Assembly: GCA_965206595.1 (NCBI GenBank)
Contig: OZ242214.1
Location: forward strand, 5,886,675 to 5,950,674
Length of the DNA: 64,000 nucleotides
Direction of reading: 5' to 3'
Source: Candidatus Latescibacterota bacterium
GTDB taxonomy: Bacteria; Latescibacterota; UBA2968; UBA8231
The position numbers were made by a program, and so were the translations under genes. The notes beneath the pieces are model-generated. The model ran no database searches. It had not been told where the DNA came from and saw nothing but the letters and a program-made list of their open reading frames with translations. Below, piece after piece: positions 4,440-50,377 of this stretch (its first letter is position 1; every line of letters starts with the position of its first letter).

Positions 4440-4489
4440 CCCATTCCTGCACGGTGCCGGCGAAGAGGATCAGGATGAAGTTCCAGGAG

Positions 4490-5442: not shown

Positions 5443-5469
5443 GCGGGGATGTGAACTTTGCCGGGAGCT

Positions 5470-5555: not shown

Positions 5556-5564
5556 GTACCCGTT

Positions 5565-7031: not shown

Positions 7032-7053
7032 GCCTCTCCCCCTGACAACACTC

Positions 7054-9169: not shown

Positions 9170-9235
9170 AGAAGCGAACCAATCTGCGGCCGGGGGGTTT
9201 CGGCGCGGCACACTGGCACTGCCGCCATAAGAAAC

Positions 9236-9492: not shown

Positions 9493-9628
9493 GGGACAGC
9501 TACTGCGGGGACTTTCTCACCATCTGTCGAAACGACCTTGGAAAGAGCGCATTTACAGTTGATGGATGTGTGCGAGGGGTCATATTGATGACCGTACGCA
9601 TCCTATGGGGTCCAACGGAGTTTGATCG

Positions 9629-11544: not shown

Positions 11545-11768
11545 TTCTTCCGTCGAAGCACATTTCCCAAGACCAATCACTGATCGGCGTCGGTGCTATT
11601 CTACTAAAGAAGATTGGTAGGCCCCAGACCGTAACCAGCCTTTGGGAGACCGTCCGCGAGGAAGATGCGATAGGTACGTTTGAACGGTTTGTACTAGCGC
11701 TTGACATGCTTCACATCGCCGGAGCTGTAGCCTTGGAAAATGGCCTGATCGTAAAGGTGAAAAAATGA
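11541..11768 (+). CDS. Small helical protein (75 aa), candidate 'middle component'
   Basis: ATGA overlaps with both neighbours; no recognisable motif. Confidence 0.5.
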   Translation: MILPSKHISQDQSLIGVGAILLKKIGRPQTVTSLWETVREEDAIGTFERFVLALDMLHIAGAVALENGLIVKVKK

Positions 11769-13525
11769 TCCATAGTATTACCGCTAACCACTCCTCATTC
11801 AATCCCGTCGAATTCACGTCGGGCTTGAACGTGATCTTAGCAGATCGCACTGAAACTTCGACACAAAAAGACACACGAAATGGTCTTGGTAAGTCTACAC
11901 TAATTGAAATTATCCACTTCTGCCTAGGCTCCAACGTTCAAAAAGGTCAAGGGCTTTCAATAGAGCCACTACGGGATTGGGAGTTCACCTTGGAGATTAC
12001 ACTCGCGGGTAACCGTGTGAAAGTAACTCGCGCCGTTGCTAGATCTAATATTTTTGTCATAGATGGCACGACGACTGGTTGGATTGATCAACCTGATTGT
12101 GAGGATATGTTTGGAAAGAAACCAATCAGATTAAAATTGGATCAATGGAGGGCACTCTTGGGGAGGGCACTATTTGGGTTATCGCCATCTGACGAACCCC
12201 ATAGTTACACGCCGTCTTTTCGGAGTCTGCTTTCTTATTTTATAAGATTGGGGAATGACGCTTATGATGATCCCTTCCGAAATACGCGACAGCAGCAACC
12301 GTGGAACGTTCAGCTCCATGTCGGATTTCTTCTTGGCTTGAACTGGGAGAACGCGGCGAGATGGCAGGAGCTTAAGGACCAGGAGAAAGGCGTGAAGGCA
12401 TTTAGTCAAGCAATCAAGTCTGGTGTCACGGAATATGCACGGGGTTCGGTTGGCGAATTGGAGGCTGAGCGTGTTCAGTTGGAAAGTCAATTAGAGCAGG
12501 AGTCCCATGCACTACAAAATTTCAAGGTTCACCCTCAATATGAGTCTATTCAGCAAGAAGCGGACCGGGCCACAGCGATCATTCACAACTTAACTAATGA
12601 TAACGTCGTTGGTCGCAGACGATTGGCACGCTATAGGGAATCTGTTGCAGCGGAAAAGCCCCCATCGGATACCGCAATCGATGAACTGTATAAGGAGGCA
12701 GGCGTTGTTTTTTTTGAAGCGACTCGTCGCACTCTAACGGAAGCGAAGGAATTTCATTCTAAGATCGTGGAGAACAGGCGAGCTTTCCTTGAGATGGAAA
12801 TCGTACGCTTGGAACGACAAATTGAGAATAGAAACAATGACATCAGAAAATGGACCGACACCAGGGCTACTTCGCTGGAAATCCTAAGAACACATGGTGC
12901 TCTACAAGAGCTGACCAAGCTACAAGAGCGCCATGCAGGTACGCGAGAAAGACTGGAAAGTACACGTACGCGAATTTCAGAAATTAGGAATTTGACGGCG
13001 CAGAAGCGTAAGGTTCTAGTTGAGAAGACCGAACTAGCTCAGATTACCGAGCGGGATCACGAGCAACGCCGAGACGTTTGGAACACTCCAGTACGTTTCT
13101 TCAACGACAATTCTCAAGCTTTATACCAAACACCTGGACACTTGGTGATTGACATCGGTAGAGCCGGTTTCAAATACGATGTCGAGATAAACAGGAGCGG
13201 CAGTGAAGGCGTCAATAAGATGAAAATATTTTGCTTCGATTTGATGCTCGTGCAGCTCACGCCGATACGGAACAATCCAATTGATTTTCTGATTCATGAC
13301 AGTGGTCTTTACGATGGCGTTGACTCTAGGCAGCGGGCCCTTGCGCTTGAGCGCGCATGTGAAGTGTCCGAGGCAACCGATACACAATATATTTGCACAC
13401 TTAATTCTGATATGGTTCCGCGAGATGACTTCAGTCCCGGATTTTACTTCGATAAATATGTCAGACTGACGCTTACTGACAAGAATCCCTCCGGCAGTCT
13501 TCTTGGCTTTCAGTTCGAGATGTAA
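11765..13525 (+). CDS. ABC/SMC-like ATPase with a central coiled coil (586 aa)
   Basis: N-terminal Walker A NGLGKSTLIEII; ~200-aa coiled-coil insert; C-terminal signature-like SGSEG, Walker B IDFLIHDSG and D-loop LYDGVD, as in Rad50/SMC/ABC-3C-type ATPases. Confidence 0.75.
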   Translation: MIHSITANHSSFNPVEFTSGLNVILADRTETSTQKDTRNGLGKSTLIEIIHFCLGSNVQKGQGLSIEPLRDWEFTLEITLAGNRVKVTRAVARSNIFVIDGTTTGWIDQPDCEDMFGKKPIRLKLDQWRALLGRALFGLSPSDEPHSYTPSFRSLLSYFIRLGNDAYDDPFRNTRQQQPWNVQLHVGFLLGLNWENAARWQELKDQEKGVKAFSQAIKSGVTEYARGSVGELEAERVQLESQLEQESHALQNFKVHPQYESIQQEADRATAIIHNLTNDNVVGRRRLARYRESVAAEKPPSDTAIDELYKEAGVVFFEATRRTLTEAKEFHSKIVENRRAFLEMEIVRLERQIENRNNDIRKWTDTRATSLEILRTHGALQELTKLQERHAGTRERLESTRTRISEIRNLTAQKRKVLVEKTELAQITERDHEQRRDVWNTPVRFFNDNSQALYQTPGHLVIDIGRAGFKYDVEINRSGSEGVNKMKIFCFDLMLVQLTPIRNNPIDFLIHDSGLYDGVDSRQRALALERACEVSEATDTQYICTLNSDMVPRDDFSPGFYFDKYVRLTLTDKNPSGSLLGFQFEM

Positions 13526-13665
13526 AGTGAAGGGTAGATTTACAGTCTCTGGTCTCATAGACGCAATGGTCAATGGAAAGGGTATCTCCAGATTGACCTT
13601 TTCCCATCTGAAGATCAGGAGGCCAGGGTCAACCTTGATGAAATGAGAAAACAAGGAGGTGACCC

Positions 13666-14562
13666 GTGAACATACGCGAGTACCACCAACTCCAGGCGGA
13701 ACGGACCACCCTGGATGATTTGCTCGAGCGGCTACCCCCGGAAAATGTGATCGAACGAACCGGTCTGGAATTCCGGAAGAAGGAGGTGGATGAAGCACTC
13801 GCTTCGCGTCCGGAGCCCTCCAGAAACCCCACCCGGGTGTGTCTGACCTTTCGCGGAAAACCCATCGCAGGATCCCATGGGATTTTCGCGGATTTCGGGG
13901 CGGAGGCCGTTCAGGCATTTACGAATATGGTTGCCACCATGGGCGCCAGCCAACATGCACCGCTCGGGTCGCGTGGTGCGATACCCAACCGTGAGGAGTA
14001 CCGCCTGCTGATTACCGGCACGGCATCAGGATCGTTCGGTTTCGAGCTGGAAGAGGCCAGGTATGACCTCTTTCCCGAATCTTCTCCGGTCGAGTCCGCA
14101 ATTGTCCAAACAATGACAATTCTTGAGGCTACGGTTGGAGCAGACGAAGTATTGGCGAATGCCGTTTCCGAAGCCGACCCGCGAGCGCTTGAGGCGCTGC
14201 GTGGGTTCTTGGAAACGATGGCGGATCAAGACGCGGTGTGCACGGTTGAATTCAACGACGATGTTTTCCGGTTTGTGGACGTTGGCCAGGTCCGACGAAG
14301 CGAAAGCCGCCTGAGTCCGGAGAACATTCATGAAGAAGTGCGGGAAATCACAGGGCGCATTATTGGGGTATTGCCCTTCCGTCGTACGTTCGAATTTCTG
14401 GAAGATGAAACAGGAGAATTGATCTCGGGCCGGATCGATCGCGCTATCGAAGATGCTGCGGAAATTGATCAGTTTCTCAACAGATCCTTGAAGATCCGCG
14501 TGGATTCCAAACAGGTAGGAACAGCAAGGCCTCGTTACGTCCTTTTGGAATACGACATATAA
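13666..14562 (+). CDS. Hypothetical acidic protein (298 aa), no recognisable domain
   Basis: GTG start 8 nt after AGGAGG; lies between the ATPase gene and hsdR; intermediate GC (~57%). Confidence 0.55.
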   Translation: MNIREYHQLQAERTTLDDLLERLPPENVIERTGLEFRKKEVDEALASRPEPSRNPTRVCLTFRGKPIAGSHGIFADFGAEAVQAFTNMVATMGASQHAPLGSRGAIPNREEYRLLITGTASGSFGFELEEARYDLFPESSPVESAIVQTMTILEATVGADEVLANAVSEADPRALEALRGFLETMADQDAVCTVEFNDDVFRFVDVGQVRRSESRLSPENIHEEVREITGRIIGVLPFRRTFEFLEDETGELISGRIDRAIEDAAEIDQFLNRSLKIRVDSKQVGTARPRYVLLEYDI

Positions 14563-14598
14563 CGGCATTTGATCCTTGGATCCCCCAAGCATAGGGCT

Positions 14599-17500
14599 AT
14601 GACCCCGACTCCCTATACCGAGGACAGCCTCGTCCAGCAGACCACCGCCAACTACCTGGAGCAACGCCTGGGCTGGGAGTCAATCTACGCCTACAACCAC
14701 GAGGACTCCGGTCCCGGCAGCCTGCTCGGCCGCGCCTCCGGCCGCGAGGTAGTGCTGGAGCGGACGCTTCGCGCGAACCTCGCGGAGCTGAATCCGGGCC
14801 TGCCCGCATCCGCATACGACGACGCGGTGCGGCAGATCACCGCTGTCTCCGCCTCCCAGACCCTCGTCGCCGCCAACCGTGAGAAGTACAAGCTGGTACG
14901 GGACGGCCTGCAGGTGGTCTTCACCAACGACCGGGGCAAGCGGAAGACACGCCTCCTGCGGCTGTTCGACTTCGCCGAGCCGGCCAACAATCATTTCCTG
15001 TGCGTGCGCGAGCTGTGGGTGCAGGGGGATCTCTACCGCCGCCGCGCCGACATCGTCGGCTTCGTCAACGGCCTGCCGTTGCTGTTCATCGAGTGCAAGA
15101 ACATCCACCGCGACCTCAAGGCCGCCTTCGAGGGGAACTACTCCGACTACCGCGACACCATTCCCCACCTCTTCCACCACAACGCAGTGGTGATGTTCGC
15201 CAACGGCGAGAAGGCGAACATCGGCTCCATCACCAGCCGCTGGGAACACTTCTACGAGTGGAAGCGCCTGGCCGAGGAGGAGCCGGGTGTGGTCGACATG
15301 GAGACGCTGCTCAAGGGGGTCTGCGACAAGCGCAACTTCATGGACTTGGTGGAGAACTTCATCCTCTTCGACGATTCGACGGGAGAGACGCGGAAGATTC
15401 TGGCCCGCAACCACCAGTTCCTCGGCGTGAACCGGGCCGTCGAGGCGGTGCGCGACCGCGAGAAGCGGCAGGGCCGGCTCGGCGTCTTCTGGCATACCCA
15501 GGGAGCGGGCAAGAGCTACTCGATGGTGATGTTCACCCGCAAGGTTCATCGCAAGCTGGGGGGCAACTTCACCTTCCTGGTGCTGACCGACCGGGACGAT
15601 CTCGACCGCCAGATCTACAAGACCTTCGCCGGCTGCGGCGTGGTGGATCACGATCGCGACCCCTGCCGGGCCGCGGACGGAAAGCACCTCGGCCGGTTGA
15701 TGGCCGAGCACAAGTCCCACGTCTTCTCGCTGATCCAGAAGTTCAACCTGGACCCGGGCGCCGGCTACACGATGCGCGGGGACATCATAGTCATCAGCGA
15801 CGAGGCGCACCGCACCCAGTACGGCACCCTGGCGCTCAACATGCGCAACGCCCTGCCAAACGCCGGCTACATCGGCTTTACGGGCACGCCGCTGTTCACC
15901 GAAGATGAGATCACCCGTCGCGTCTTCGGCGAGTACGTCTCGACCTACGACTTCCAGCGCGCGGTGGAGGACGAGGCCACGGTGCCGCTCTACTACGACG
16001 CCCGCGGCGACAAGCTGGGCGTTGCCATCGGCGACCTGAACGAGCGCATCGCCGACAAGCTGGATGAGTTCGACATCGAGGACGTCGACGTGGAGCAGCG
16101 CCTGGAGCAAGACCTGAAGCGGGACTATCACGTCGTCACCGCGGGCAGGCGTCTCGACCAGGTAGCGCGGGACTTCGTGCAGCACTATTCCGCGGCCTGG
16201 GAGACCGGAAAGGCGATCCTGGTCTGTATCGACAAGATCACCTGCGTGCGCATGCATGGGCTGATCGAGCGCTATTGGAACGAGCGCATCGAGGAACTGG
16301 AGGAGGAGAAGAAGTGGACTGACGACGAGCAGGAGGAGATTTATCTCCAGCGGCAGATCGAGTGGACGCGGGAGACCCGCATGGCCGTGGTGGTGAGCGA
16401 GGATCAGGGGGAGGTGGCGAAGTTCCGCAAGTGGGAGCTGGACATCACCCCGCACCGGAAGCTCATCAAGAATGGTATGGAACTGCCCGAGTCGATGCGC
16501 CGCAAGCCGCAGTTCCGCCGCAAGCAGCGGATGGCGGTCGACGAAGCCTTCAAGGCGGAGGAGCATCCGTTTCGCATCGCCATCGTTTGCGCCATGTGGC
16601 TGACCGGTTTCGACGTGCCGAGCCTTTCCACGCTCTACCTCGACAAACCGCTCAAAGCCCACACCCTTATGCAGGCCATCGCCCGCGCAAACCGGGTCAA
16701 CGAGGGCAAGAACAACGGCCTGATCGTCGACTACTGCGGCATCCTCAGGCACCTGCGCAAGGCCCTGGCGACCTTTGCCGGTACCGCCGACGGAGGAGGA
16801 GGTGGTGGCGGTCCCGGTCAAGAGATTGATCCTGTGCAACCGGGAAAGGAGCTGCTCGCTGGCCTCGCCGAAGCGATTGCCATGGTGCGCGCTTTCCTCG
16901 AAGAACGCCGTGCGCCGCTCGACGATGTCATCCATAAGACCGGCTTCGAGCGCAACGCCGCCATCGTGGCCTGCAAGGAAGCGGCCAACGAGAACGACGA
17001 GACCCGCAAGCGCTTCGAAGTGATCTGCCGCGAGGTTTTCAGGAAGTTCAAGGCCTGCATCAACCTGCGGGGCGTCAACGCCTACCGGGGGGATCGCGCC
17101 GCCATCGACGCCGTCTACCGGAGCCTCCAGCAGGACCGCGAGCAGGCCGACATCACCGACATCATCCGCGCCCTGCACGGAGTGGTGGACGAGGCCATCG
17201 ACCTGCGGCAGGAACGCACTAGGGATAGTCATCGGGATCCGTTGGACATCAGCCGGATCGACTTCGACCGGCTCAAGCGGGAGTTCGAGGGCAGCCCCGC
17301 CAAGCGGACGACAGTGCAGTCCCTCAAGGAGGCAGTGGAGGAGAGGCTCCGGCGCCTTTTGGCCCGCAACCCGCTACGGACCGACTTCCAAAGACATTTC
17401 GAGGAGATAGTCAGAGAGTACAACCGGGAGAAGGAGCGGGTGACCATCGAGCATACCTTCGAGGCATTGCTCAACCTCGTGAAGGAGCTGGATGAGGAGG

Positions 17501-17853
17501 AAAAGCGGGCCTTGAACATGGGATTGAACGAGGAATCGCTGGCGATCTACGATCTTCTGCAGAAACCGGATCTCGGGGCGCGTGACATCAACCGCATCAA
17601 AATGGTCTCCATTGAGCTGCTGCGAACGTTGAAAGAGGGGAAGCTCCGCGTCGAACAATGGCGCGAAAAGGAGGCGACCCGGGCCGCGGTCAAGGGAGAG
17701 ATCCAGGACTTCCTGTGGAGCGACGTAACCGGGCTGCCGCCCGACAGCTACACGGATGACGATGTGCAGGTGAGGGTGGACGGCGTTTTCGGCCACGTAT
17801 ACCGGGCCTACCCTACGGTGCCATCACCTTTCTACATGAGCGACGCCGCGTGA
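14599..17853 (+). CDS. hsdR: Type I R-M restriction subunit HsdR (helicase/nuclease), ~1084 aa
   Basis: N-terminal …EDSLVQQTTANYLEQRLGWES…; DEAH box (IVISDEAHRTQYG); helicase motifs; start placed at the internal Met. Confidence 0.9.
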   Translation: MTPTPYTEDSLVQQTTANYLEQRLGWESIYAYNHEDSGPGSLLGRASGREVVLERTLRANLAELNPGLPASAYDDAVRQITAVSASQTLVAANREKYKLVRDGLQVVFTNDRGKRKTRLLRLFDFAEPANNHFLCVRELWVQGDLYRRRADIVGFVNGLPLLFIECKNIHRDLKAAFEGNYSDYRDTIPHLFHHNAVVMFANGEKANIGSITSRWEHFYEWKRLAEEEPGVVDMETLLKGVCDKRNFMDLVENFILFDDSTGETRKILARNHQFLGVNRAVEAVRDREKRQGRLGVFWHTQGAGKSYSMVMFTRKVHRKLGGNFTFLVLTDRDDLDRQIYKTFAGCGVVDHDRDPCRAADGKHLGRLMAEHKSHVFSLIQKFNLDPGAGYTMRGDIIVISDEAHRTQYGTLALNMRNALPNAGYIGFTGTPLFTEDEITRRVFGEYVSTYDFQRAVEDEATVPLYYDARGDKLGVAIGDLNERIADKLDEFDIEDVDVEQRLEQDLKRDYHVVTAGRRLDQVARDFVQHYSAAWETGKAILVCIDKITCVRMHGLIERYWNERIEELEEEKKWTDDEQEEIYLQRQIEWTRETRMAVVVSEDQGEVAKFRKWELDITPHRKLIKNGMELPESMRRKPQFRRKQRMAVDEAFKAEEHPFRIAIVCAMWLTGFDVPSLSTLYLDKPLKAHTLMQAIARANRVNEGKNNGLIVDYCGILRHLRKALATFAGTADGGGGGGGPGQEIDPVQPGKELLAGLAEAIAMVRAFLEERRAPLDDVIHKTGFERNAAIVACKEAANENDETRKRFEVICREVFRKFKACINLRGVNAYRGDRAAIDAVYRSLQQDREQADITDIIRALHGVVDEAIDLRQERTRDSHRDPLDISRIDFDRLKREFEGSPAKRTTVQSLKEAVEERLRRLLARNPLRTDFQRHFEEIVREYNREKERVTIEHTFEALLNLVKELDEEEKRALNMGLNEESLAIYDLLQKPDLGARDINRIKMVSIELLRTLKEGKLRVEQWREKEATRAAVKGEIQDFLWSDVTGLPPDSYTDDDVQVRVDGVFGHVYRAYPTVPSPFYMSDAA

Positions 17854-23810: not shown

Positions 23811-24002
23811 GTGATCGACAGTCTCGTCCGCTACCTCGAGTCCCTTGTGCGCAGCGACGCCCTCGAGATCGTCCTCGCCGTCGCCGCCATCCTCGCCTGG
23901 TGGTTCGCCGCCAGGGTGCGGCGCGCACTGCGCCTGCTGAACGGCGAGGACCCTGCGGCTCCTGCCGAGCCGCGGCCGCGCCGGCGCCTGCCCCTCTCCT
24001 GA
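23811..24002 (+). CDS. Small hypothetical membrane protein (63 aa)
   Basis: One hydrophobic helix; weak. Confidence 0.3.
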   Translation: MIDSLVRYLESLVRSDALEIVLAVAAILAWWFAARVRRALRLLNGEDPAAPAEPRPRRRLPLS

Positions 24003-24014
24003 CCGCACGCGGGT

Positions 24015-25226
24015 TTGCCGATGGAACAGGACCGGATTCGCGAGCGCTGCGAGGCGATGTCGGACCGCGAGCTGCTCCTCGCCGCGACCCTGCGCCGCGG
24101 GGAGAACAGCCAGCGGTTCCGCGAGGAGGCCCTGCGCCACCTCAAGCGCCGCGGGATCGACATCGACGAGTTCACCGGCCGCGCCCGCGTGCGTGTCGAC
24201 GACGGCGAGGCGCAGACGCTGCCGGACGCCAGGGCGGTCGAGCTCCTCGGCCACGCCGAACCCTGGCAGACCCTTTCGTTCGTCAGCTGCGTCGGCGACA
24301 GCCTGCTGGTGCAGCGCGAGCCGCGGCAGTGGTGGTGCCATTTCTACGACGGGGACACCTATCGCGGCTCCTTCCGCTGTCGCGCCGGCGAGGAGGTCGC
24401 CGGGGTCCTGCGCCCTTTCCTGAATCTCGAACCCTGGGACGGTGGGGCCGGCGAACTGCAACGGCTCGACGACTGGTCCCTCCTCATCGATTCCGACGCC
24501 GTCGATTTCATCGAGTCGATCGCCCTCGACCTCGACGACGCCGGCATCCCGCACACGGTGAGAATGCCGCTGTTCGACGGGGGAGCCGGGGAAGAGGAAG
24601 GGGAGGTGTACGCCCTCCTGGTGCCGCGGCAGCACTTCGGCGAGGCCTTCGACGCCATCGAGGAGGTGGAGGAGACCATTGTCGACCTCTACGAGGAAGC
24701 CGAGGAGCTTGCGGCCCGGGGCAACCTCTCCGCTGAGCTCGAGGTGTACGACGAGCTCGTCGAGACCGACCCGGAGAACCATGCGGTGTTCTACAACCGC
24801 GGCCACATACTCCTGGAGCTCGGGCGCTGGGAAGAGGCGGCCGCGGCCCTGATCGAGGCGGTCTCAATCGGCATGCAGCGGGCCGACAAGTCGCTGCAGC
24901 CGGAACAGAGGGGGGCGGCCGGGATCGGCGGCCTGGCCGGGCTGCTGGCCTTCCTGCTGCGGCGCGAGGTCGCCGCCCCCTCGGCCTCCGCTTATCCCGA
25001 CTACATCGACGACAGCGAGATGCTGCTGGAGCGGCTGCTGCAGAGGCTGCCCGAAAGCGTCGAGATACTGCATTGCCTCGCCTCCATCGCCCGCCTCAAG
25101 AACCGGCGGGAAGCCGCGGAAGCCCACTACCGGCGGGTGCTGGAGATAGATCCGGAGGACAAGGTCGCCTGGTTCAACCTCGGCTACATGCACTCCGAAA
25201 AGGGGGGCGACGCGACCTCGGGCTGA
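24015..25226 (+). CDS. TPR-repeat protein (403 aa)
   Basis: C-terminal TPR-like repeats (…AVFYNRGHILLELGRWEEA…, …AWFNLGYMHSEKG…). Confidence 0.55.
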   Translation: MPMEQDRIRERCEAMSDRELLLAATLRRGENSQRFREEALRHLKRRGIDIDEFTGRARVRVDDGEAQTLPDARAVELLGHAEPWQTLSFVSCVGDSLLVQREPRQWWCHFYDGDTYRGSFRCRAGEEVAGVLRPFLNLEPWDGGAGELQRLDDWSLLIDSDAVDFIESIALDLDDAGIPHTVRMPLFDGGAGEEEGEVYALLVPRQHFGEAFDAIEEVEETIVDLYEEAEELAARGNLSAELEVYDELVETDPENHAVFYNRGHILLELGRWEEAAAALIEAVSIGMQRADKSLQPEQRGAAGIGGLAGLLAFLLRREVAAPSASAYPDYIDDSEMLLERLLQRLPESVEILHCLASIARLKNRREAAEAHYRRVLEIDPEDKVAWFNLGYMHSEKGGDATSG

Positions 25227-33445: not shown

Positions 33446-33913
33446 ATGACCGACCAGGTGACGGCAGAGGACATTCTCGCAGCAAAGGGAGGCGATCTCC
33501 TCAGCGTCTCGGAGGACGCGACCATCGGGGAAGCGCTCGAGGTCATGGTCGGGGGCAAGGTGGGATCCATTCTGGTAAGGGAGGGCAGCCGCATCGTCGG
33601 CATCTACACGGAACGGGATCTCATGCGCAACTCCATCGACGCCGGTTTCGACCCGGGGAAGTCGCGCATCGGGGATCACATGAGCCGCGGCCTCAAGTTT
33701 GCTCCCCACACCGACACCGCCTACGAGCTGATGGACAAGTTCCTCGGGTTGCGGATCAGGCATCTCCTGATCGACAAGAACGACCAGTTCATCGGGCTGC
33801 TGTCGGTCGGGGACGTCATCAAGGCGGCCCTGCAGGCGCGCACCGACGAACTGGAAGAGCTCGAGGCGATCGCCAAGTGGGAGTACTACGAGGAATGGAA
33901 GCCCCGCCGTTGA
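33446..33913 (+). CDS. CBS-domain pair protein
   Basis: Two CBS motifs; 155 aa. Confidence 0.7.
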   Translation: MTDQVTAEDILAAKGGDLLSVSEDATIGEALEVMVGGKVGSILVREGSRIVGIYTERDLMRNSIDAGFDPGKSRIGDHMSRGLKFAPHTDTAYELMDKFLGLRIRHLLIDKNDQFIGLLSVGDVIKAALQARTDELEELEAIAKWEYYEEWKPRR

Positions 33914-33928
33914 GGCCGGGCAGACTTC

Positions 33929-34549
33929 ATGCCGAGAATTGAGGTCATCCCGGTGGAGCGCGCGACCGGCGCGCTCAAGACCGAGTACGACAAGGCGATC
34001 GGCCGCGCCGGGCGGGTGTGGAACATCGTCGGCGTCATGAGCTGCAATCCCGCGGTCCTGCGGGATTCGATCAAACTCTACGGCAGCGTGATGCACGGGC
34101 CGTCGCCGCTGACCCGCAGGCAGCGGGAGATGCTGGCCGTCGTCGTCTCGGCGCGCAATCACTGTGTCTACTGAACCCGCTCCCACGCCCACGATCTCCG
34201 GGAAGAGATCGCAGCGTCCGATGACATGAGCGCCGCCGAAGCGGACGCCTTCGTTCACGCGATTGCGCGCGACTGGCGAAGCGCCGGGCTCGGCACGCAG
34301 GATCGCGAGCTGTGCGGGTTCGCCGAGCGCCTCACCGACGATTCGGAAGGGGTGGACGATGGGGGCATAGCCGCCCTGCGCCGCTGCGGCCTCGACGACC
34401 GCGCCATCCACGATGCGACGCAGGTAGTGGCGTATTTCAACTACATCAACCGCGTCGCCTCCGCCCTCGGGGTGGAGCAGGAGACCTTCGCGCGCGCCTG
34501 GGAGCAGGCGGATGCCGGGAGCGGCTCGGACGGAGAGGGAAGCGCGTGA
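33929..34549 (+). CDS. AhpD-like (carboxymuconolactone decarboxylase family) protein, predicted selenoprotein with Sec at codon 82 (in-frame TGA 34172-34174)
   Basis: ORFs 33929..34174 and 34226..34549 share one frame, separated only by a TGA. That TGA sits at the second Cys of the AhpD motif E-x11-C-x2-C-x3-H (here E…CVY[TGA]TRSH). A 7-bp stem-loop lies 17 nt downstream. Confidence 0.7.
34192..34211 (+). promoter_or_regulatory. Candidate bacterial SECIS hairpin (stem cgatctc / gagatcg, loop CGGGAA)
   Basis: Seen directly; starts 17 nt after the in-frame UGA. Confidence 0.5.
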
Positions 34550-35295
34550 GCTGGTCGCAAGAGGAGCTCCGGTCCTACCGGGACCGCGGCTACGCCCTGT
34601 GCCGCGGCCTTCTGTCTTCTGCTGAGGTGACGAATCTGCGGGAAGCGCTGCCGCGGCTGCTGAATGGCGAAGGGGACGGCATGCACCGCGAGCGGGAGCG
34701 CGGCGGTGCGGTGCGGCAGGTCTACCTCGCACACCGCCATGTCGGTGCGTTCTCCGAGGTTGTCCGCCACTCCGCGATTCTCGAACCGGTGAAACAGATC
34801 GTCGTCGGCGACGTGTACGTCTGGCACAGCAAGCTCAACGTCAAGGAGGCGTTCGAGGGCACCGTATGGCTGTGGCACCAGGACTACGGCTACTGGATGT
34901 GGGACGGCGTCGATCCCCGCCTGGTGTCGGCGATGGTCATCCTCGACAGGTCAACGGCGAACAACGGCTGCATGATGGTGGTCGCCGGCTCTCACAAGTG
35001 GGGCCGCCAGGAGCATTTCGCCGACGAGGAGACGACGAGCTACAAGCAGTGGTGCATCGATACCGAAACCCTCAAGACCAAGCTGCGCGAGGAGCAAATC
35101 CAGCAGATCACCGGCGAACCGGGAGACGTGCTGTTCTTCGACTGCAATCTCGTGCACGGCTCCGGGCACAACATGTCCCCCCTTCCGCGCAAGGTATTCA
35201 TCATCGCCTACAACTCCGTCGACAACAGGCCGCGGCCGGTGGAGAACCCGCGGCCCGACTGGGTGGTGTCGCGCACGTACGACCCTGTTGGATAG
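34546..35295 (+). CDS. PhyH-superfamily dioxygenase, ectoine-hydroxylase-like
   Basis: …WLWHQDYGYWMWDG… resembles the EctD/PhyH signature; GTG start overlaps the previous stop (GTGA). Confidence 0.65.
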   Translation: MSWSQEELRSYRDRGYALCRGLLSSAEVTNLREALPRLLNGEGDGMHRERERGGAVRQVYLAHRHVGAFSEVVRHSAILEPVKQIVVGDVYVWHSKLNVKEAFEGTVWLWHQDYGYWMWDGVDPRLVSAMVILDRSTANNGCMMVVAGSHKWGRQEHFADEETTSYKQWCIDTETLKTKLREEQIQQITGEPGDVLFFDCNLVHGSGHNMSPLPRKVFIIAYNSVDNRPRPVENPRPDWVVSRTYDPVG

Positions 35296-36838: not shown

Positions 36839-37648
36839 ATGACCGCATCGCTTTTTGATCTCGAGGGAATGGTGGCCGCCGTGTCGGGCGGGGCCCGGGG
36901 CCTGGGACGGGCAATGGCCCTCGCCCTGGCCGGCGCGGGCGCCGACGTCGTGATCGCCGACATCGACGCCGCCGCGGCTGCCGAAACCGCCGGCGAAATC
37001 GAGAGCATGGGCCGCCGCGGCGCCGCGGTCGACTGCGACATCTCCCGCCCGGAGCAGATAGACACCTGGTTCGAGCGGATCGACGCCTTCGGAGGGATCG
37101 ACTTCCTCGGCAACGTCGCCGGCGCCGGTCTGCTCAAGGCCCCGGAGGAGCTGTCGCTCGAAGAGGTCCGAAAGGTGCTCGACGAGCTGGTCGCCTGCCG
37201 TTTCTACTGCTGCCAGCAGGCGGGGCGGCGCATGCTGGCGGCCGGCAGGGGCAGCATCGTCAACATCGGCTCGCTGGCGAGCGTCACCGCCCTCGGCCGC
37301 GGGCACATCTCCTACAGCATGGCGATGGGGGGCGTGGTGCAGATGACGAGGGAGCTGAGCACGGAATGGGCGGCGCGCGGGGTGCGCGTCAACGCCATCC
37401 TGCCGGCCCAGGTGCTCAACCCCGGGCTCCAGGAGCGCATGGAAAAGGTACCGGAGCTCAAGGCCACCTATCTCGGCGGCATCCCGAGGGCCCGCTTCGG
37501 ACACCCGGACGACATCCGCGGGCTGGCGGTGTTTCTCGCTTCGGACTCCTCCGCATGGATCACCGGGGCGCTGATCCCGATGGACGGGGGCAACCTGGCG
37601 ATGAACGCCGGCGGCAGTTATCCCGGCGGCCCGCGGGCGAGCGGATAA
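36839..37648 (+). CDS. SDR-family oxidoreductase
   Basis: Rossmann fold plus YSMAMGG catalytic region. Confidence 0.8.
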   Translation: MTASLFDLEGMVAAVSGGARGLGRAMALALAGAGADVVIADIDAAAAAETAGEIESMGRRGAAVDCDISRPEQIDTWFERIDAFGGIDFLGNVAGAGLLKAPEELSLEEVRKVLDELVACRFYCCQQAGRRMLAAGRGSIVNIGSLASVTALGRGHISYSMAMGGVVQMTRELSTEWAARGVRVNAILPAQVLNPGLQERMEKVPELKATYLGGIPRARFGHPDDIRGLAVFLASDSSAWITGALIPMDGGNLAMNAGGSYPGGPRASG

Positions 37649-37674
37649 GGCCGCGGCGCAACCGGACACAAGAC

Positions 37675-38652
37675 TTGCAACTCTCGAAGAAAACCGCGCT
37701 GGGGCTCTACCGGCAGATGCTGGCGATCCGCCGCACCGAGGAGCAGCACGCCCGCTCCTACGCCTCAGGGCTCATCCTCGGCGCCTGCCACACCTACATC
37801 GGCGAGGAAGCGGTGGCGGCCGGTGTCTGCGCCCACCTGCGGGACGACGACGCCGTCTTCAGCACGCACCGCGGCCACGGCCACGCCCTGGCCAAGGGGG
37901 TGCCGATCCGCGAGGTGATCGCCGAGCTGTTCGGCAAGGTCACCGGCTGTTCCCAGGGCCGCGGCGGCAGCATGCACCTGTTCTCTCCCGAGGTCGGCAT
38001 GATGGGGACGAGCGGCATTGTCGGGCCCTGCATTCTGCAGGCCGCGGGCGCCGCCTACTCCTTCAAGCTTCTGGATACCGACCGCATCGGCGTCGCCTTC
38101 TTCGGGGACGGGGCCGTCAGCAACGGCGCCTTTCACGAAGGGCTGACGATGGCGGCCAGGTGGGAGCTGCCTGCCCTGTTCGTGTGCGAGAACAACCTCT
38201 TCGCCACCGAGATCGCCTTTTCCACGGCGACGAGCAATCCCGAAGTCGCCAACCGCGCCGAGGCGTACGGGTTGCCCGGGGTCGCCCTCGACGGAAACGA
38301 CGCCGCCGCGGTGTACGAAGTCGCCCGGGAAGCGGTTGCCCGAGCCCGCGGCGGCGGCGGCCCCACCCTGATCGAGTGCAGGACCTACCGAACCCGGCCC
38401 CACTCCGAGGGCATGAGGGACACCGGCTACCGCACCCAGGAAGAGATCGATTCCTGGAAGAGGCGCGACCCGATTCGGGCGCTGCGTGAAAGGATCCTGG
38501 CGGCGAATCTCGCCGCGAAGGTGGAGCTCGATGCCATCGACGCCGGCATCGAGGCGGAAGTGAAGGAAGCGGCGAAGTATGCCGAAGAGTCCCCCTGGCC
38601 CGACCCGGCCACCATCTCCGACCACATCTACAGCGGTACCCGCAATGCGTGA
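37675..38652 (+). CDS. TPP-dependent dehydrogenase E1 alpha subunit (acetoin/pyruvate dehydrogenase type)
   Basis: TPP motif GDGAVSNGAFHEGLTMAA…N; TTG start inferred from N-terminal conservation (…LSKKTALGLYRQMLAIRRTEE…). Confidence 0.75.
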   Translation: MQLSKKTALGLYRQMLAIRRTEEQHARSYASGLILGACHTYIGEEAVAAGVCAHLRDDDAVFSTHRGHGHALAKGVPIREVIAELFGKVTGCSQGRGGSMHLFSPEVGMMGTSGIVGPCILQAAGAAYSFKLLDTDRIGVAFFGDGAVSNGAFHEGLTMAARWELPALFVCENNLFATEIAFSTATSNPEVANRAEAYGLPGVALDGNDAAAVYEVAREAVARARGGGGPTLIECRTYRTRPHSEGMRDTGYRTQEEIDSWKRRDPIRALRERILAANLAAKVELDAIDAGIEAEVKEAAKYAEESPWPDPATISDHIYSGTRNA

Positions 38653-39622
38653 GCTCACCTACACGGAAGCGGCCCGCGAAGGCCTGAGCGAGGAGATGGC
38701 CGCCGACCCGACGGTCTTCGTGGTCGGCCAGGGGATCGGTCCTCGGGGCGGCAACTTCAACACCACCACCAGCCTGCACGAGATCTACGGCGACATGCGG
38801 CTGCGCGACACGGGGATCACCGAGCGCGGGTTCACCGGCCTGTGCACGGGGGCCGCGATGACCGGTTCGCGTCCGGTCGTCGACTACATGTTTCACGACT
38901 TCGCCCTCGACGCCCTCGGCGAGATCGTCAACCAGATCCCCAAGATCCAGTACATGAGCAGTGGCCGTCTGCGTATGCCGATCGTGCTGCGCGGCTGCAT
39001 CGGCGTCGGCGGGGCCGCGGCGACCCATCACTCCGGCAGCTACTATCCGCTGTTCGCGCACCTGCCCGGCTTCCGGGTCTGCCTGCCGAGCACGCCGTAC
39101 GACGTCAAGGGGCTGCTTAAGACGTCGATCCGCAGCGACGATCCGGTAATCTTCATGGAGCACAAGTCGCTGCTCAACACCCGCGGTCCGGTTCCCGAAG
39201 AGGAGTACACCATCCCCTTCGGCGAGGCGTCGATCCGCCGCCGGGGGGAACACGCCACCGTCGTCGCCCTGACCACCATGGTGGGGCGCACCCTCGAGGT
39301 CGCCGCCGGGCTCGAGGCCGAGGGGATCTCCCTCGAGGTCATCGATCCCCGCACCGTCGCCCCGCTCGACATCGACGCCGTGCTCGAGTCGGTGCACAAG
39401 ACCGGACGTCTGCTCGTGGTCGACGAGACCTGGGCCCCTTGCGGCATAGGGGCGGAGATCGCCGCACAGGTGATCGACCGCGGCTTCGACGATCTCGACG
39501 CGCCGATCCGGCGCCTGAATGGAGCCCACACCAACATCCCCTACAGCGCCCCGCTCGAGGCGGCCGTCGTGCCGCAGAAGGGGGACATCCGCGACGCTGT
39601 CCGGGAGCTGGTCGCCGAGTAG
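38645..39622 (+). CDS. Dehydrogenase E1 beta subunit (transketolase-like)
   Basis: Typical E1-beta sequence; ATG overlaps the alpha stop. Confidence 0.85.
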   Translation: MRELTYTEAAREGLSEEMAADPTVFVVGQGIGPRGGNFNTTTSLHEIYGDMRLRDTGITERGFTGLCTGAAMTGSRPVVDYMFHDFALDALGEIVNQIPKIQYMSSGRLRMPIVLRGCIGVGGAAATHHSGSYYPLFAHLPGFRVCLPSTPYDVKGLLKTSIRSDDPVIFMEHKSLLNTRGPVPEEEYTIPFGEASIRRRGEHATVVALTTMVGRTLEVAAGLEAEGISLEVIDPRTVAPLDIDAVLESVHKTGRLLVVDETWAPCGIGAEIAAQVIDRGFDDLDAPIRRLNGAHTNIPYSAPLEAAVVPQKGDIRDAVRELVAE

Positions 39623-39630
39623 GAGCAGCA

Positions 39631-40725
39631 GTGGCGGTCGACGTCGTCATGCCCCGCCTCGGGTGGACCATGGAGGAGGGCACCCTGGTGGAGTGGACGA
39701 GGAAGGACGGCGACGCGATCGCCGCGGGCGAGGTGATCATGCTGGTCGAGAGCGACAAGGCGGTCACCGAGGTAGAGTCGTTCGATGACGGCATCCTGCG
39801 CATTCCCCCTGACTCGCCCCCCCCGGGAACCACGGTGCCGATCGGTACCGTGCTCGCCTTCATCCTGCAGCCGGGCGAGGAGATGCCGGAGTCTCCGACC
39901 GGGAGCGCGCCTGAAGCCACGGCCTCGGAGTTGCCCGGACCGGTTCCGGCGGCTGCACCGGAAACCGCGCTGGCCGTCTCTCCGGTCCCGGTCCCGGTTC
40001 CGGCGCAGGCACAGGCTCCCCCGCCCCGCGGGCGCCGCGGGTCGGCGATTTCCCCGCGCGCCCGTAGGGTTGCGGTCGAGCTTGGTATCGACTGGCAGCG
40101 CCTGCGCGGCAGCGGCCGCAGCGGCCGTATTGTCGAACGCGACGTGCGCGCCGCCGCGAAAACCGCATCCGCGGTACCTGCCGCAGCGGCCGCCTCTCAG
40201 GCCGCAGAGGTGGATATGACGGCGTTCGTCAGCCACTGCGACCGGCTGGCGGAGCTGATGAAGCGGACCCCTGTCGTGCCGGGAATGTTCGACTTGGTTC
40301 TGCGCTCTGTTGGACAGGCCTTGGCAGAGGTGCCGTCCCTGTCGGGGGCGGACTCCGGTGTCCGCGTTCAGCGCGACGACTCCGCAGCGGTTCTCAAGAG
40401 CTTTCAGTCGCTCTCCGTTCTCGATATCGGCCGGGCCATGGCTGGGGACGAAACCGCTGGCCGCGGGGCAGTCGCGGCTTCGACTCCGTTCAACGTCATT
40501 GCCCTCGAGGGTGTCGATGCGCTGGCTCCCGGGCTGCCCCCCGGCGCCGTTGGCGTGCTGGGACTGGGTTCGGTGCGGGAGAGAGAGGGCGCCGCCGGGA
40601 CGAGGAAGTCCCTGAACCTGCAGTTGACCTACGACCTCTCGGCGGTGACGGACGCCGAGGCGCAGCAGTTCATGGGGGCGTTGCGGTCGTACCTCGAAGA
40701 CCCCTTCACCTGGCTCTCCTGGTGA
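39631..40725 (+). CDS. E2-like lipoyl protein (lipoyl domain plus E3-binding domain) with a degenerate acyltransferase domain
   Basis: Lipoyl-lysine motif ESDKA and E3-binding motif present; catalytic DHRxxDG replaced by DLSAVTD. Confidence 0.65.
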   Translation: MAVDVVMPRLGWTMEEGTLVEWTRKDGDAIAAGEVIMLVESDKAVTEVESFDDGILRIPPDSPPPGTTVPIGTVLAFILQPGEEMPESPTGSAPEATASELPGPVPAAAPETALAVSPVPVPVPAQAQAPPPRGRRGSAISPRARRVAVELGIDWQRLRGSGRSGRIVERDVRAAAKTASAVPAAAAASQAAEVDMTAFVSHCDRLAELMKRTPVVPGMFDLVLRSVGQALAEVPSLSGADSGVRVQRDDSAAVLKSFQSLSVLDIGRAMAGDETAGRGAVAASTPFNVIALEGVDALAPGLPPGAVGVLGLGSVREREGAAGTRKSLNLQLTYDLSAVTDAEAQQFMGALRSYLEDPFTWLSW

Positions 40726-41596: not shown

Positions 41597-42769
41597 CTAG
41601 TGTCATGTCGTGTAATTAACTGTACAAACAATTGAAAGTGCCGTAGGTTTCCCTTATCCCCCTTCTGAAAGGAGAGACCTATGGTGACGGGGCGTCCATT
41701 AACGCCGTTAGAGCTGAGTCCGTCGGACCGGGAACGACTGGAATCGATGGCCAAATCACGAAGTCTTCCCCACGGATTGGTGCGGCGAGCCGAGATGGTG
41801 CTGCTGGCCGCCGATGGCTGGCCCAATGAAGCGGTCGCTTCCGCGGTGGGTGTGACGCGAGCTACGGTGGGCAAATGGCGCCGGCGTTTTCTCGACAACG
41901 GACTCAATGGCTTGTATGATGAACTACGTTCAGGGGCGCCGCGATCGATCACGGACGAGCAGGTAGCCGAGGTGGTATACAAGACCCTGAAGACCAAGCC
42001 CAAAGACGAAACACAGTGGTCGGTGCGCTCCATGGGCGAAGAAACCGGCCTGACCAAGGACGCGGTTCATCGCATTTGGCGCACGTATGGTTTGCAGCCC
42101 CATCGACACAAGCGCTTCAAGCTTTCCACCGATCCTTTCTTTGTCGACAAAGTACGGGATATCGTCGGCTTGTACCTGAATCCCCCCGAGCACGCCTTGG
42201 TGCTGTGCGTGGACGAGAAGAGCCAGATCCAGGCGTTGGAACGAAGTCAGCCCATGCTGCCCCTGGGACTGGGATACGTGGAAGGGATTACGCACGACTA
42301 CAAGCGGCACGGCACCACCACCCTGTTTGCCGCCCTGGACATCGCCACCGGGGAAGTGATGACCCAGTGCAAGCCCCGTCATCGTCACCAGGAGTTCCTC
42401 CAGTTCCTGCGCCACATCGAGGCCAACGTGCCCGCTGACCTCGATATTCATCTCGTCGTCGACAACTACGCCACGCATAAGCATGCCAAGGTCAAGCGAT
42501 GGCTGGCACGGCGTCCCCGATTTCACCTTCACTACACTCCCACGTATGCTTCGTGGCTCAATCAGGTGGAGATCTGGTTCAATATCCTCACCCGCCAGGC
42601 GGTTCGGCGCGATTCGTTCCGCAAGGTGTCGGAGCTCATCGAGCGAATCGAACGCTACACGGCCAAATGGAACGCCAACGCACACCCTTTCGTCTGGACG
42701 GCTACGGCGGATTCCATCCTCGCCAAAATCAAGAGACTTTGTGAACGAATCTCTGCGACAGGACACTAG
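41597..42769 (+). mobile_element. IS630-family insertion sequence (~1.17 kb)
   Basis: Imperfect terminal inverted repeats ctagtgtcatgtcg / cgacaggacactag; TA at both ends; single DDE transposase; lower GC. Confidence 0.8.
41681..42769 (+). CDS. IS630-family DDE transposase (362 aa)
   Basis: N-terminal HTH plus DDE region (…LVLCVDEKS…, …[11 protein letters not shown]…, …[12 protein letters not shown]…). Confidence 0.85.
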
Positions 42770-48490: not shown

Positions 48491-50377
48491 CTACAGGAAT
48501 CTGCAGGACTTCAGCTCGCGGGCAGAGAGGCGGATGCCCCCCGCCTTCAGGCCGCGTACCGGGTAGTCGGACACGGCGAAGCACTCGTTAAGCACACGCA
48601 GCCTGGGCTTCGGCTTGTAGTCGACCGAAACGGTGGCGTCCGGACTGGTGGTAAGGCGCAGCAGCTTGCAGCCTTCCGGGACCAGTTCGTACGAGCGGTT
48701 GAGGATGAACTGGTCGATGACGCAGCGCTTGATGCAGGGCCGGCCCTTCGCGTCGCGGTAAACGGCGTTGAAGACCGTGTCCTTGTCGACGAAGCCGCAG
48801 TGAAGCATCCCCTTGCCGACGAAGAGCTTGTCGGGAGCGTCGATCACCGAGTAGGAGCCGCCGGCGCGGATCACCAGCACGCGGTCGTACTGGGATACGT
48901 TGAACTGCGCCTGTCCGTTCACTTCGTAGCCGAGATAGCCGCTCCCCTTGTCGTAGGCCAGTTTGAGGTCGCGCTTGGCAGCCTCGCGGACGTCGACCTT
49001 CTCGAGGGACAGGATCTCGGTGCGGCGCGGAAACAGCGGGCGCTGCTTCTCGATCAGGTTTTCGAGAAAGGCGATCGCGTACGGAATGATGTTTTCCAGG
49101 TGGTGGGCGACCTGTTTCAGCCGCTCCTCGATCTCGCGCGCTTCCTTATTGGCGCGCTCCATGTCGTAAAGCGAGATGCGGCGGATGGGGATCCTGAGCA
49201 GGGTGTCGACGTCGTCGAGGGTAACCTCTCTGCCGATCTCTGCACGGTGCGGCTCGAGGCCGGACAGTACCGCCTGCAGGACGGCGTCGGCGCTCTTCTT
49301 GTCCTCGATCTCCTGGTAGATCCGGTTTTCGATGAAGATCCGTTCGAGCGTCCGGGCGTGCAGCCTGTCCTTGAGCCGGCCCTGCTCGACCAGAAGCTCG
49401 GCCTTCAGGATGTCGACGAGCCGGTCGACGTTGTGCCGCAGGATCTCGGCGACGCCCATTACCCGCGGTTTGTCGCCATCGATCACCACCGGGTTGCAGG
49501 ACAGGGACAGTTCGCAATCGGTGAAGGCGTAAAGCGCGTCGACCACCTCCTGGCCGTAGACGCCGCGCGGCAGCTTGATCTCGACCTCGACGTTCTCGGC
49601 GGTGTAGTCGTGGATGCTGGAGATCCTGACCTTGTTCTTGCGGGCGGCGTCCTCGACCGAGGCGATCAGCAGCTCCGTGGTCGTGCCGTAGGGGATCTCG
49701 GTGATGACGATCCGCTTGGGGTCGGACAGATCCATGCGCGCCCGCACCAGCACCTTGCCCTTGCCGCCGGCGTACTGCGACACGTCGGCCATGCCCGCCG
49801 TAGGGAAGTCCGGGAGGAGCTCGAACTCCCCATTCTTCAAGTAGGCGACCTGCGCCTCGAGCAGCTCGATCAGGTTGTGCGGCAGGATGCGCGTCGCCAT
49901 GCCCACGGCGATCCCTTCAGCTCCCTGCGCCAGCAGCACCGGTAACTTCGCCGGCAGGATCACCGGCTCCTTGTTGCGGCCGTCGTACGAATCGACGTAC
50001 TCGGTGATCTCGGGATCGAACAGGACCTCGGAGGCGAGAGGGGACAGGCGGCACTCGATGTAGCGGGCGGCCGAGGCCATGTCGCCGGTGTAAATGTTGC
50101 CGAAGTTCCCCTGCCGGTCGATGAACAGCTCCTTGTTCGCCAGCACGACGAGGGCCGAATAGATCGAGGCGTCGCCGTGCGGGTGGTATCTCATGGTGTG
50201 GCCGACGACGTTGGCGACTTTGTGAAACTTGCCGTCGTCGAGCTCGAAGAGGGCGTGCAGGATGCGCCGCTGCACCGGTTTGAGCCCGTCGTCGACGTGG
50301 GGAATGGCGCGGTACTTGATCGCGTACGAGGCGTACTCGACGAAGTTTTTCTCGTACAGGGTGTCTACGTAAGCCAT
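48491..50377 (-). CDS. Type IIA topoisomerase subunit A (GyrA/ParC-like), short form (628 aa)
   Basis: …GLKPVQRRIL…, active-site Tyr context AARYIECRL; canonical ~300-aa beta-pinwheel C-terminal domain absent. Confidence 0.8.
   Translation of the reverse strand: MAYVDTLYEKNFVEYASYAIKYRAIPHVDDGLKPVQRRILHALFELDDGKFHKVANVVGHTMRYHPHGDASIYSALVVLANKELFIDRQGNFGNIYTGDMASAARYIECRLSPLASEVLFDPEITEYVDSYDGRNKEPVILPAKLPVLLAQGAEGIAVGMATRILPHNLIELLEAQVAYLKNGEFELLPDFPTAGMADVSQYAGGKGKVLVRARMDLSDPKRIVITEIPYGTTTELLIASVEDAARKNKVRISSIHDYTAENVEVEIKLPRGVYGQEVVDALYAFTDCELSLSCNPVVIDGDKPRVMGVAEILRHNVDRLVDILKAELLVEQGRLKDRLHARTLERIFIENRIYQEIEDKKSADAVLQAVLSGLEPHRAEIGREVTLDDVDTLLRIPIRRISLYDMERANKEAREIEERLKQVAHHLENIIPYAIAFLENLIEKQRPLFPRRTEILSLEKVDVREAAKRDLKLAYDKGSGYLGYEVNGQAQFNVSQYDRVLVIRAGGSYSVIDAPDKLFVGKGMLHCGFVDKDTVFNAVYRDAKGRPCIKRCVIDQFILNRSYELVPEGCKLLRLTTSPDATVSVDYKPKPRLRVLNECFAVSDYPVRGLKAGGIRLSARELKSCRFL

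Follow-up and report, generated by a model that had tools for sequence, protein, structure and literature searches.

The AhpD-like selenoproteins were introduced by Zhang, Fomenko and Gladyshev in 2005, when 27 sequences from the Sargasso Sea that belong to COG2128 and carry a CxxU motif were reported as a new selenoprotein family, the 'AhpD-like protein', together with a predicted selenocysteine insertion sequence (SECIS) (PMC1088965). In the Global Ocean Sampling study of Zhang and Gladyshev (2008) the family appears as 'AhpD-like 1' (COG2128, CxxU), the fourth most abundant selenoprotein family, with 299 selenocysteine (Sec) forms and 902 Cys homologues (PMC2398784), and a 2026 review lists it in its table as 'AhpD-like protein, TIGR01926, CxxU' (PMC13188914). 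Here we describe how a gene of this kind occurs in a stretch of 64,000 nucleotides of contig OZ242214.1, from an assembly (GCA_965206595.1) deposited as Candidatus Latescibacterota bacterium; this whole stretch, positions 5,886,675 to 5,950,674 of the forward strand, is referred to as the window, and its own numbering is used throughout. Judging from sequence comparison, the gene very probably encodes a single AhpD-like (TIGR01926/COG2128) thiol/selenol oxidoreductase of 206 residues, in which an in-frame UGA is decoded as Sec (Table 1). As such, it is a mis-annotated member of a selenoprotein family known since 2005, and nothing of a new kind.

For AhpD of Mycobacterium tuberculosis, the catalytic apparatus has been assigned to Glu118, Cys130, His132, Cys133, His137 and a water molecule, and for PA0269 of Pseudomonas aeruginosa to Glu36, Cys48, Tyr50, Cys51 and His55 (PMC3141380). 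In the mycobacterial enzyme, Cys133 is exposed at the base of a cleft and forms a mixed disulfide with AhpC, and Cys130 is partly buried (PMC6626918). The COG2128-type AhpD-like protein DR1765 of Deinococcus radiodurans protects against H2O2 in a CxxC-dependent manner, and lipoyl proteins serve as reductants of AhpD (PMC8945050). The window protein reproduces the PA0269 pattern exactly, with E67, C79, Y81, U82 and H86, and the E-x11-C-x2-C-x3-H spacing of the proton relay is formed by E67, C79, U82 and H86.

One gene across an in-frame TGA

The original prediction, which was drawn from the letters of the window alone, described two same-frame open reading frames (ORFs) separated only by a TGA at the second Cys of the AhpD active-site motif, a read-through product of 206 amino acids of the carboxymuconolactone decarboxylase (CMD) family, and an automated annotation that would split this product into 81 and 107 amino acids. 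All of this is borne out. The frame opened by the ATG contains, within positions 33929-34546, no stop codon other than this TGA, leaving an ORF of 81 amino acids (33929-34174, ending in ...ARNHCVY) and one of 107 (34226-34549) on either side, and the predicted split is indeed present in public gene calls. A sequencing error is ruled out by four independent assemblies (ERZ25068966, ERZ23495124, ERZ23495182 and ERZ6103948), which show the identical 81-residue product followed by the 107-residue ORF. Contigs with the gene include ctg565308 of ERZ25068966 (819 kb) and one of 7.05 Mb on which the identical proteins are encoded. Strain variants of at least 90% identity add six N-terminal pieces, all of which end in ...NHCVY, and seven C-terminal pieces that keep the 107-codon frame, with the exception of one of 114 amino acids.

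The window has a GC content of 64%, and its 43 ORFs with a high GC content at third codon positions (high GC3) end in 20 TGA, 17 TAG and 6 TAA codons. Since TGA is the commonest ordinary stop, the genetic code is standard, and reassigned codes (4 or 25) are rejected; TGA also terminates both the upstream CBS gene and the AhpD-like gene itself. When the window was scanned for other same-frame pairs of high-GC3 ORFs separated by a TGA, the only other junction, a TGA at 24000-24002, proved to be the normal end of one gene, behind which another starts (MEQDR...).

Family and structure searches were carried out with the read-through product, in which Cys was substituted at the TGA for Pfam and NCBIfam. 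The product matches Pfam CMD (PF02627) with 46.6 bits, and the NCBIfam model TIGR01926 ('peroxidase-related enzyme') with 122 bits against a cutoff of 81.8, the latter in one stretch that covers residues 3-184 and profile positions 2-175 of 178. Among solved structures, the best match is 6k40 ('Alkyl hydroperoxide reductase AhpD', E=5.5e-24), which may be DR1765, followed by 2oyo, 3c1l, 2pfx and 2prr, with E values of up to 1e-11. These are all single chains of 188-197 amino acids, and their alignment spans query residues 7-182, and thereby both halves. The motifs CVYC of 6k40 and CLYC of 2oyo fall exactly on C-V-Y-TGA of the window, where ...RELLAVVVSGLNRCVYCAVSH... lies over ...REMLAVVVSARNHCVY-U-TRSH..., and the CxxC homologues likewise have a Cys at this position. 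A single TIGR01926 match, together with single-chain structures across both halves, means that the two 'ORFs' are parts of one domain. The original prediction had named halves that are normally separate proteins as a finding that would speak against it; instead, the homologues show one polypeptide.

How far is the TGA itself conserved? A scan of GTDB with the family alignment, using one genome per species, yielded 594 confirmed stretches, the best 80 of which were analysed and which, together with the window, make up the 81 loci referred to below. The TGA is found at the same column in all 81 (80/80 and the window), within C-x-Y-U-x-x-[AS]-H-A-H-D-L-R. The metagenome-assembled genomes (MAGs) of the best 80 loci are labelled Chloroflexota (including Anaerolineae, Caldilineaceae and Roseiflexaceae), Gemmatimonadota, Latescibacterota, Planctomycetota, Actinomycetota, Acidobacteriota and Calditrichaceae. 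Downstream of the TGA, variation in the codons for His (CAC/CAU), Ala (GCN), His (CAC/CAU) and Asp (GAC/GAU) is confined to third positions, a signature from which it follows that this region is translated, and protein-level constraint does not differ between the two sides of the TGA. The first in-frame ATG, GTG or TTG lies at 34226 in the window, and at least 13 codons past the TGA in 78 of the 81 loci (positions +13 to +83), one locus having none. With no early restart codon, the catalytic His and H-A-H-D-L-R can therefore only be made through read-through of the UGA.

In protein databases, the family is met in three guises: full-length CxxC proteins, many proteins of 113-120 amino acids that start just past the TGA column, and full-length proteins with a W at this column, most of them encoded on contigs of roughly 1 kb. 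One protein (P0106) stops at ...CHY, immediately before the TGA column.

The hairpin downstream of the UGA

The rules given for bacterial SECIS (bSECIS) elements concern shape (an apical loop of 3-9 nt on an upper stem of 4-16 bp), stability (a minimum free energy, MFE, of at most -7.5 kcal/mol), loop sequence (a G among the first two loop nucleotides, with G or U usually coming next) and placement (16-37 nt between UGA and loop) (PMC13188914). The original prediction of a 7-bp stem with the 6-nt loop CGGGAA, starting 17 nt downstream of the TGA, stands as described. This hairpin belongs to the MFE fold of the 61 nt 3' of the UGA, sits within the codons for H-D-L-R-E-E-I, and agrees with all four rules, having a 6-nt loop on 7 bp, -9.5 kcal/mol when folded alone, a G followed by a G at loop position 2, and a spacing of 24 nt.

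The comparative evidence comes from an ungapped alignment (A2) of the 48 nt that start at the UGA, in which the helix occupies columns 21-27 and 34-40 of the 81 loci. Of all cells in this helix 97.3% are paired, with zero mispairs at the four loop-proximal pairs, and compensatory double changes from C-G to U-A are found in 9 sequences at columns 24/37, in 2 at 25/36 and in 7 at 21/40. In 500 column shuffles, the observed pairing or covariation was never matched, and sliding the 3' arm by one to three columns reduces pairing to 21-45%. In the distant CxxC homologues that served as negative controls (L086 and L088), 2/7 pairs are in register and local structure is all but absent. The window carries the U-A variant (GAU-CUC...GAG-AUC), which is also present in loci labelled Anaerolineales, Caldilineaceae, Ardenticatenaceae, Pirellulaceae, Planctomycetaceae and Gemmatimonadota; its recurrence across these labels points to several independent origins. 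These sequences thus share a SECIS that is both conserved and covarying.

The pairing has also left its mark on codon choice. The loop reads C-G-[G/U]-G in 80 of the 81 loci, and its Arg codon is CGG or CGU in 81/81, never CGC or CGA, against 39% among 1,478 other Arg codons of the same genes. Similarly, the Leu codon of the stem is CUC in 79/79 cases (30% elsewhere), with two Phe replacements (UUC) that pair with GAA, and the Glu codon of the stem is GAG in 79/81 (56% elsewhere). RNA pairing even sets an amino acid, as a GAU codon for the paired Asp goes along with Ile (AUC) in place of Val (GUC). It should be noted that these codon and shuffle statistics treat the loci as independent though they are related, a problem which the recurrence in multiple phyla and the slid-register control reduce, but do not remove. 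A search of the whole window against Rfam at gathering thresholds gave no match, which says little, as Rfam may hold no model for such a SECIS.

Several relatives have a different codon or residue at the Sec position. Protein P0009, present on 11 contigs and read three times in independent sets of ENA, Logan and JGI data (L092 2001-2582, L093 1417-1998 and L094 547-1128), carries a true TGG codon (Trp) at this position, within C-S-Y-W-T-Q-A-H-A-H-D-L-R, and its SECIS-like hairpin is still 6/7 paired, at -9.4 kcal/mol. This is evidently a natural Sec-to-Trp replacement, in which full length is kept and the catalytic residue is lost. A loss of Sec decoding in this lineage may lie behind it, or a new function. 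Protein P0001 (L095 202-786) has a W at the Sec column as well, yet the DNA reads TGA, and translation of the gene does not reproduce the stored record. Here the W is artificial and most likely stems from gene calling with code 4 (TGA as Trp) on a short contig, and the same perhaps applies to P0002-P0008, P0016 and P0024. As an explanation for every database W at the Sec position, however, this artefact was rejected, since it holds for P0001 and is false for the genuine TGG of P0009.

The closest Cys-form clade (L085 3001-3570, P0014; also P0010) reads T-R-Y-C, having lost the first Cys and taken up a Cys (TGC) in place of Sec. Its hairpin, at an unchanged offset, is degraded to 6/7 pairs and -6.0 kcal/mol, where distant CxxC forms have 2/7, and this looks like a fossil SECIS after conversion from Sec to Cys. 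In L085, the AhpD-like gene directly follows E1-beta/E2 2-oxoacid dehydrogenase genes. Furthermore, the Sec forms are extended by an insertion of some 10 residues (...AASDDMSAAEAD...) right after the hairpin, which their Cys-form relatives do not have (columns ~144-156 of alignment A1). In the window this insertion comprises residues ~95-105 (34211-34243), and it may be a spacer that is tolerated or needed owing to the RNA element.

Probable selenocysteine insertion and its alternatives

So what would happen at the UGA? When a ribosome arrives there, the hairpin would act as a bacterial SECIS, with its loop sequence 5'-C-G-G-G-3' at 24 nt past the UGA. As we infer from known selenoprotein families, this apical loop would recruit SelB.GTP.Sec-tRNA(Sec), such that Sec is inserted in place of termination. 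Sec82 would then take the place of the second Cys of the CxxC motif, which is the attacking position, while Cys79 would resolve the selenenylsulfide, and Glu67, His86 and Tyr81 would form the proton relay. A selenol has a lower pKa and a higher nucleophilicity than a thiol, properties that would pay off at precisely this attacking position. The protein would presumably act as a peroxide or disulfide reductase, with peroxide itself or a peroxiredoxin/OsmC-type partner as possible substrates, and its reductant may be a lipoyl protein, given the E2 gene nearby. The organism itself is presumed to be capable of decoding Sec. In a related locus from a Planctomycetaceae MAG (L076), a full-length selB (10758-12734), which scores 327.6 bits with TIGR00475 where the cutoff is 242, starts 170 nt downstream of the AhpD-like gene (10001-10588) on the same strand, as the sole Sec-machinery match in 1.33 Mb of fetched sequence. 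ARAGORN found no tRNA-Sec in the window or in 60 related loci, and a literature search on Sec use in Gemmatimonadota returned nothing informative.

We must take into account that several observations weigh against Sec insertion into an enzyme of this type. Searches with ARAGORN, Pfam, and tblastn with SelA, SelB and SelD of Escherichia coli found no selA, selB, selD or tRNA-Sec in the 64 kb of the window. As a single sequence, the hairpin is unremarkable: with z = -1.5, and 17 of 200 shuffles folding equally well, it could be due to chance alone, a doubt that is removed by the comparative evidence of the TGA column, the in-register pairing and the shuffles. The hairpin also overlaps the conserved peptide H-D-L-R-x-E-V, which makes its conservation partly a matter of the protein, and it is for this reason that the synonymous-site and covariation tests were run. 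The -7.5 kcal/mol rule is passed by only 67 of the 81 loci when the 24-nt core is folded alone. As for the enzyme, the score against TIGR00777, the model for true AhpD, is 21.4 bits and below the cutoff of 191.95, and the biochemical role is extrapolated from distant homologues. There is no AhpC/Prx partner among the 30 annotated ORFs of the window, and all-vs-all clustering of the genes within 5 kb on either side of the 81 loci gave no conserved partner, the largest neighbour cluster reaching 7/81 loci. With no neighbour conserved throughout the family, coupling to a lipoyl-E2 is therefore to be taken as a lineage-specific hypothesis, and not as a property of the family.

Among the alternatives, the one that fares best is that of a relic or of recoding without Sec, in which a gene of Sec-using ancestry now has its UGA terminate translation, or has it read by a near-cognate tRNA (for Trp, Cys or Arg), leaving a truncated or weakly active product. 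That lineages do leave the Sec state is apparent from the homologue with a genuine TGG and a hairpin still paired at 6/7, and from the closest Cys-form clade, which retains a degraded hairpin. However, these lineages changed the codon, whereas the window keeps its TGA along with a perfect 7/7 hairpin and a canonical loop, all with little or no change among several strains and assemblies, and a catalytic Trp or Arg would not suit CxxC chemistry. We therefore regard a relic as improbable.

Less probable still is a pseudogene, in which the TGA would have arisen by mutation of a Cys codon (TGC/TGT) and the window organism would carry a dead gene. It would take one base change only, and the lack of Sec machinery in the window and the two short ORFs of public annotation would both agree with it. 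On the other hand, a dead gene does not account for a TGA column kept in 81/81 loci with labels of at least six phyla, nor for a protein-level constraint that is equal on either side of it; the covarying hairpin with its synonymous-site constraint would have no role, and strain variants of at least 90% identity retain both the TGA and an intact downstream frame of 107 codons. Finally, that two separate proteins of 81 and 107 amino acids arise by termination and reinitiation, their fusion being illusory, is scarcely credible in spite of the ATG at 34226 and the acceptance of both ORFs by gene callers, as the 17 codons between TGA and ATG hold the invariant catalytic His and H-A-H-D-L-R with substitutions at third positions only, the restart varies from +13 to +83 codons in 78/81 loci and is absent in one, all Cys-form relatives and solved structures are single chains of ~190 amino acids spanning both parts, and TIGR01926 is matched as a single stretch. 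A single protein with Sec at the UGA is thus the reading that we prefer.

Neighbouring genes, stored records and known systems

The AhpD-like gene lies between genes for a CBS-domain protein and a PhyH-family dioxygenase (Table 1). The GTGA overlap with the latter suggests translational coupling between the AhpD-like and PhyH genes.

Table 1. Positions of the AhpD-like gene, its elements and its neighbours in the window
Feature	Position	Strand	Remarks
CBS-domain protein, upstream neighbour	33446-33913	+	Stop TGA 15 nt before the AhpD-like start; probably same transcript
AhpD-like selenoprotein gene (predicted)	33929-34549	+	206 codons and true stop TGA 34547-34549; TIGR01926 peroxidase-related enzyme
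Active-site segment E67-x11-C79-V-Y81-U82-T-R-S-H86	34127-34186	+	Matches AhpD Glu/Cys/Tyr(His)/Cys/His proton-relay residues; codons E67 34127-34129, C79 34163-34165, U82 34172-34174, H86 34184-34186
In-frame UGA, read as selenocysteine U82 (predicted)	34172-34174	+	Where AhpD has the exposed second Cys of its CxxC motif
17 conserved codons (TRSHAHDLREEIAASDD) from UGA to first possible restart codon	34175-34225	+	Translatable only via UGA read-through
Bacterial SECIS hairpin (predicted)	34192-34211	+	5' arm CGAUCUC 34192-34198, apical loop CGGGAA 34199-34204, 3' arm GAGAUCG 34205-34211
PhyH-family Fe(II)/2-oxoglutarate dioxygenase, downstream neighbour	34546-35295	+	GTG start overlaps AhpD-like stop (GTGA)
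2-oxoacid dehydrogenase E1-alpha, E1-beta, lipoyl-E2	37366-40725	+	Pfam E1_dh, Transket_pyr, Biotin_lipoyl/E3_binding/2-oxoacid_dh; ~3 kb downstream

Downstream of PhyH follow a 2-hydroxyacid dehydrogenase, an SDR, E1-alpha, E1-beta and lipoyl-E2 (39439-40725), and this E1/E2 group is a possible source of a lipoyl reductant. Among the 81 loci, the order Lhr-CBS-AhpD-like-E1a-E1b-E2-SDR is common only to the window, L003 and L006, with amino acid identities of 70-79% across six neighbouring genes, and in L003 and L006 the E1a gene directly adjoins the AhpD-like gene. That in the lineage of these three the Sec-containing protein is coupled to E1/E2, as a selenoenzyme reduced by lipoyl-E2, is a doubtful proposal as it stands. 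If true, it would be the Sec counterpart of the AhpD-DlaT link of mycobacteria, connecting central metabolism to peroxide defence.

Some further features of the window deserve mention. Compared to the near-identical contig L081, it contains an insertion of 1,169 bp at ~41600-42769, where the alignment offset shifts from 23930 to 25099 at position 42770. This insertion is located between the SDR and formamidase genes and encodes a transposase with HTH and DDE_3 domains (ORF 41681-42769, + strand), and it therefore represents an insertion sequence that is polymorphic between strains. Positions 3456-17853 hold a defence-type cluster, consisting of proteins with Schlafen/AlbA_2 or HATPase_c_4 and Fic-like_C domains (3456-4439 and 5565-7031), HsdM (6925-8700) and HsdS (9629-10774) of a type I restriction-modification system, a DUF2326 protein (11765-13525), and an unannotated ORF of 1094 amino acids (14569-17853) that may be HsdR. 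Lastly, the ParC of the window (48491-50377) is at least 90% identical to a protein that NCBI labels Gemmatimonadota, while the syntenic L003 and L006 are deposited as Candidatus Latescibacterota; one of these labels is probably wrong.

For selenoprotein biology as it is known, the gene changes nothing; its value lies in annotation hygiene and in an example of co-constraint between RNA and protein. Hundreds of orthologues from Chloroflexota, Gemmatimonadota, Planctomycetota and other MAGs are wrongly stored in public protein sets, be it as two fragments (81 and 107 amino acids in the present case), as C-terminal halves of 113-120 amino acids, or with a spurious code-4 Trp (at least one verified case). 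As a consequence, family statistics and surveys of the Sec trait that rely on called proteins miss or misread these members. The alignment of 81 loci offers an unusually clean case of a bacterial SECIS within a catalytic helix, in which pairing dictates synonymous codons. In addition, the TGG-Trp and T-x-x-C variants with their putative fossil SECIS are natural experiments, which could show how a protein adapts to the loss of Sec decoding.

How, then, does the locus relate to the systems described before? Of the proteins that share its CMD domain, gamma-carboxymuconolactone decarboxylases are devoid of a CxxC-type motif (PMC3141380). The window protein has such a motif, which sets it apart from that enzyme. 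A closer likeness is found in NF041238 (AhpD_rel_CFYUT), which was 'hypothetical protein 1' in the Sargasso Sea data and has C-F-Y-U-T where the window has C-V-Y-U-T, in a homologous C-terminal domain (PMC13188914). Scoring 66.8 bits where the cutoff is 175, and matching profile positions 215-339 of 357 only, the window protein nevertheless belongs to a different and shorter family than this 'alkylhydroperoxidase-related (seleno)protein' of ~357 amino acids.

With M. tuberculosis AhpD (TIGR00777), the window protein has in common the catalytic helix-turn-helix and the E-x11-C-x2-C-x3-H relay, in which the exposed Cys133 corresponds to the Sec position. The mycobacterial enzyme is reduced by a lipoyl protein, and the window has a lipoyl-E2 gene nearby. 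The two are not orthologues, however, given the TIGR00777 score far below the cutoff. The motif is C-terminal in AhpD and located in the N-terminal half of the window protein; moreover, the middle residue of the motif is His in the former and Tyr in the latter, and the window gene has no adjacent ahpC. The solved relatives 6k40, 2oyo, 3c1l, 2pfx and 2prr have a Cys in place of the Sec and are without the ~10-residue insertion that the Sec clade carries after the hairpin region; no SECIS is expected in their genes.

Like the SECIS of E. coli fdhF and the bSECIS consensus, the hairpin of the window is a stem-loop directly 3' of the UGA and inside the coding region. It differs from the pattern that most bSECIS follow in that it does not have the N1-N2 pair closing the loop, these positions being C and A. 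The closest match is with the AhpD-like selenoprotein family itself: the comparison that the original prediction had suggested places the window sequence among the TIGR01926/COG2128 CxxU proteins, with which it shares the curated model, a CxxU motif whose second redox residue is the Sec, and a predicted SECIS with a G in the loop. Where that family was defined on marine metagenome reads, the copy described here resides on a contig in the range of 0.8-7 Mb, from an uncultured bacterium labelled Gemmatimonadota, and is split in two in public gene calls.

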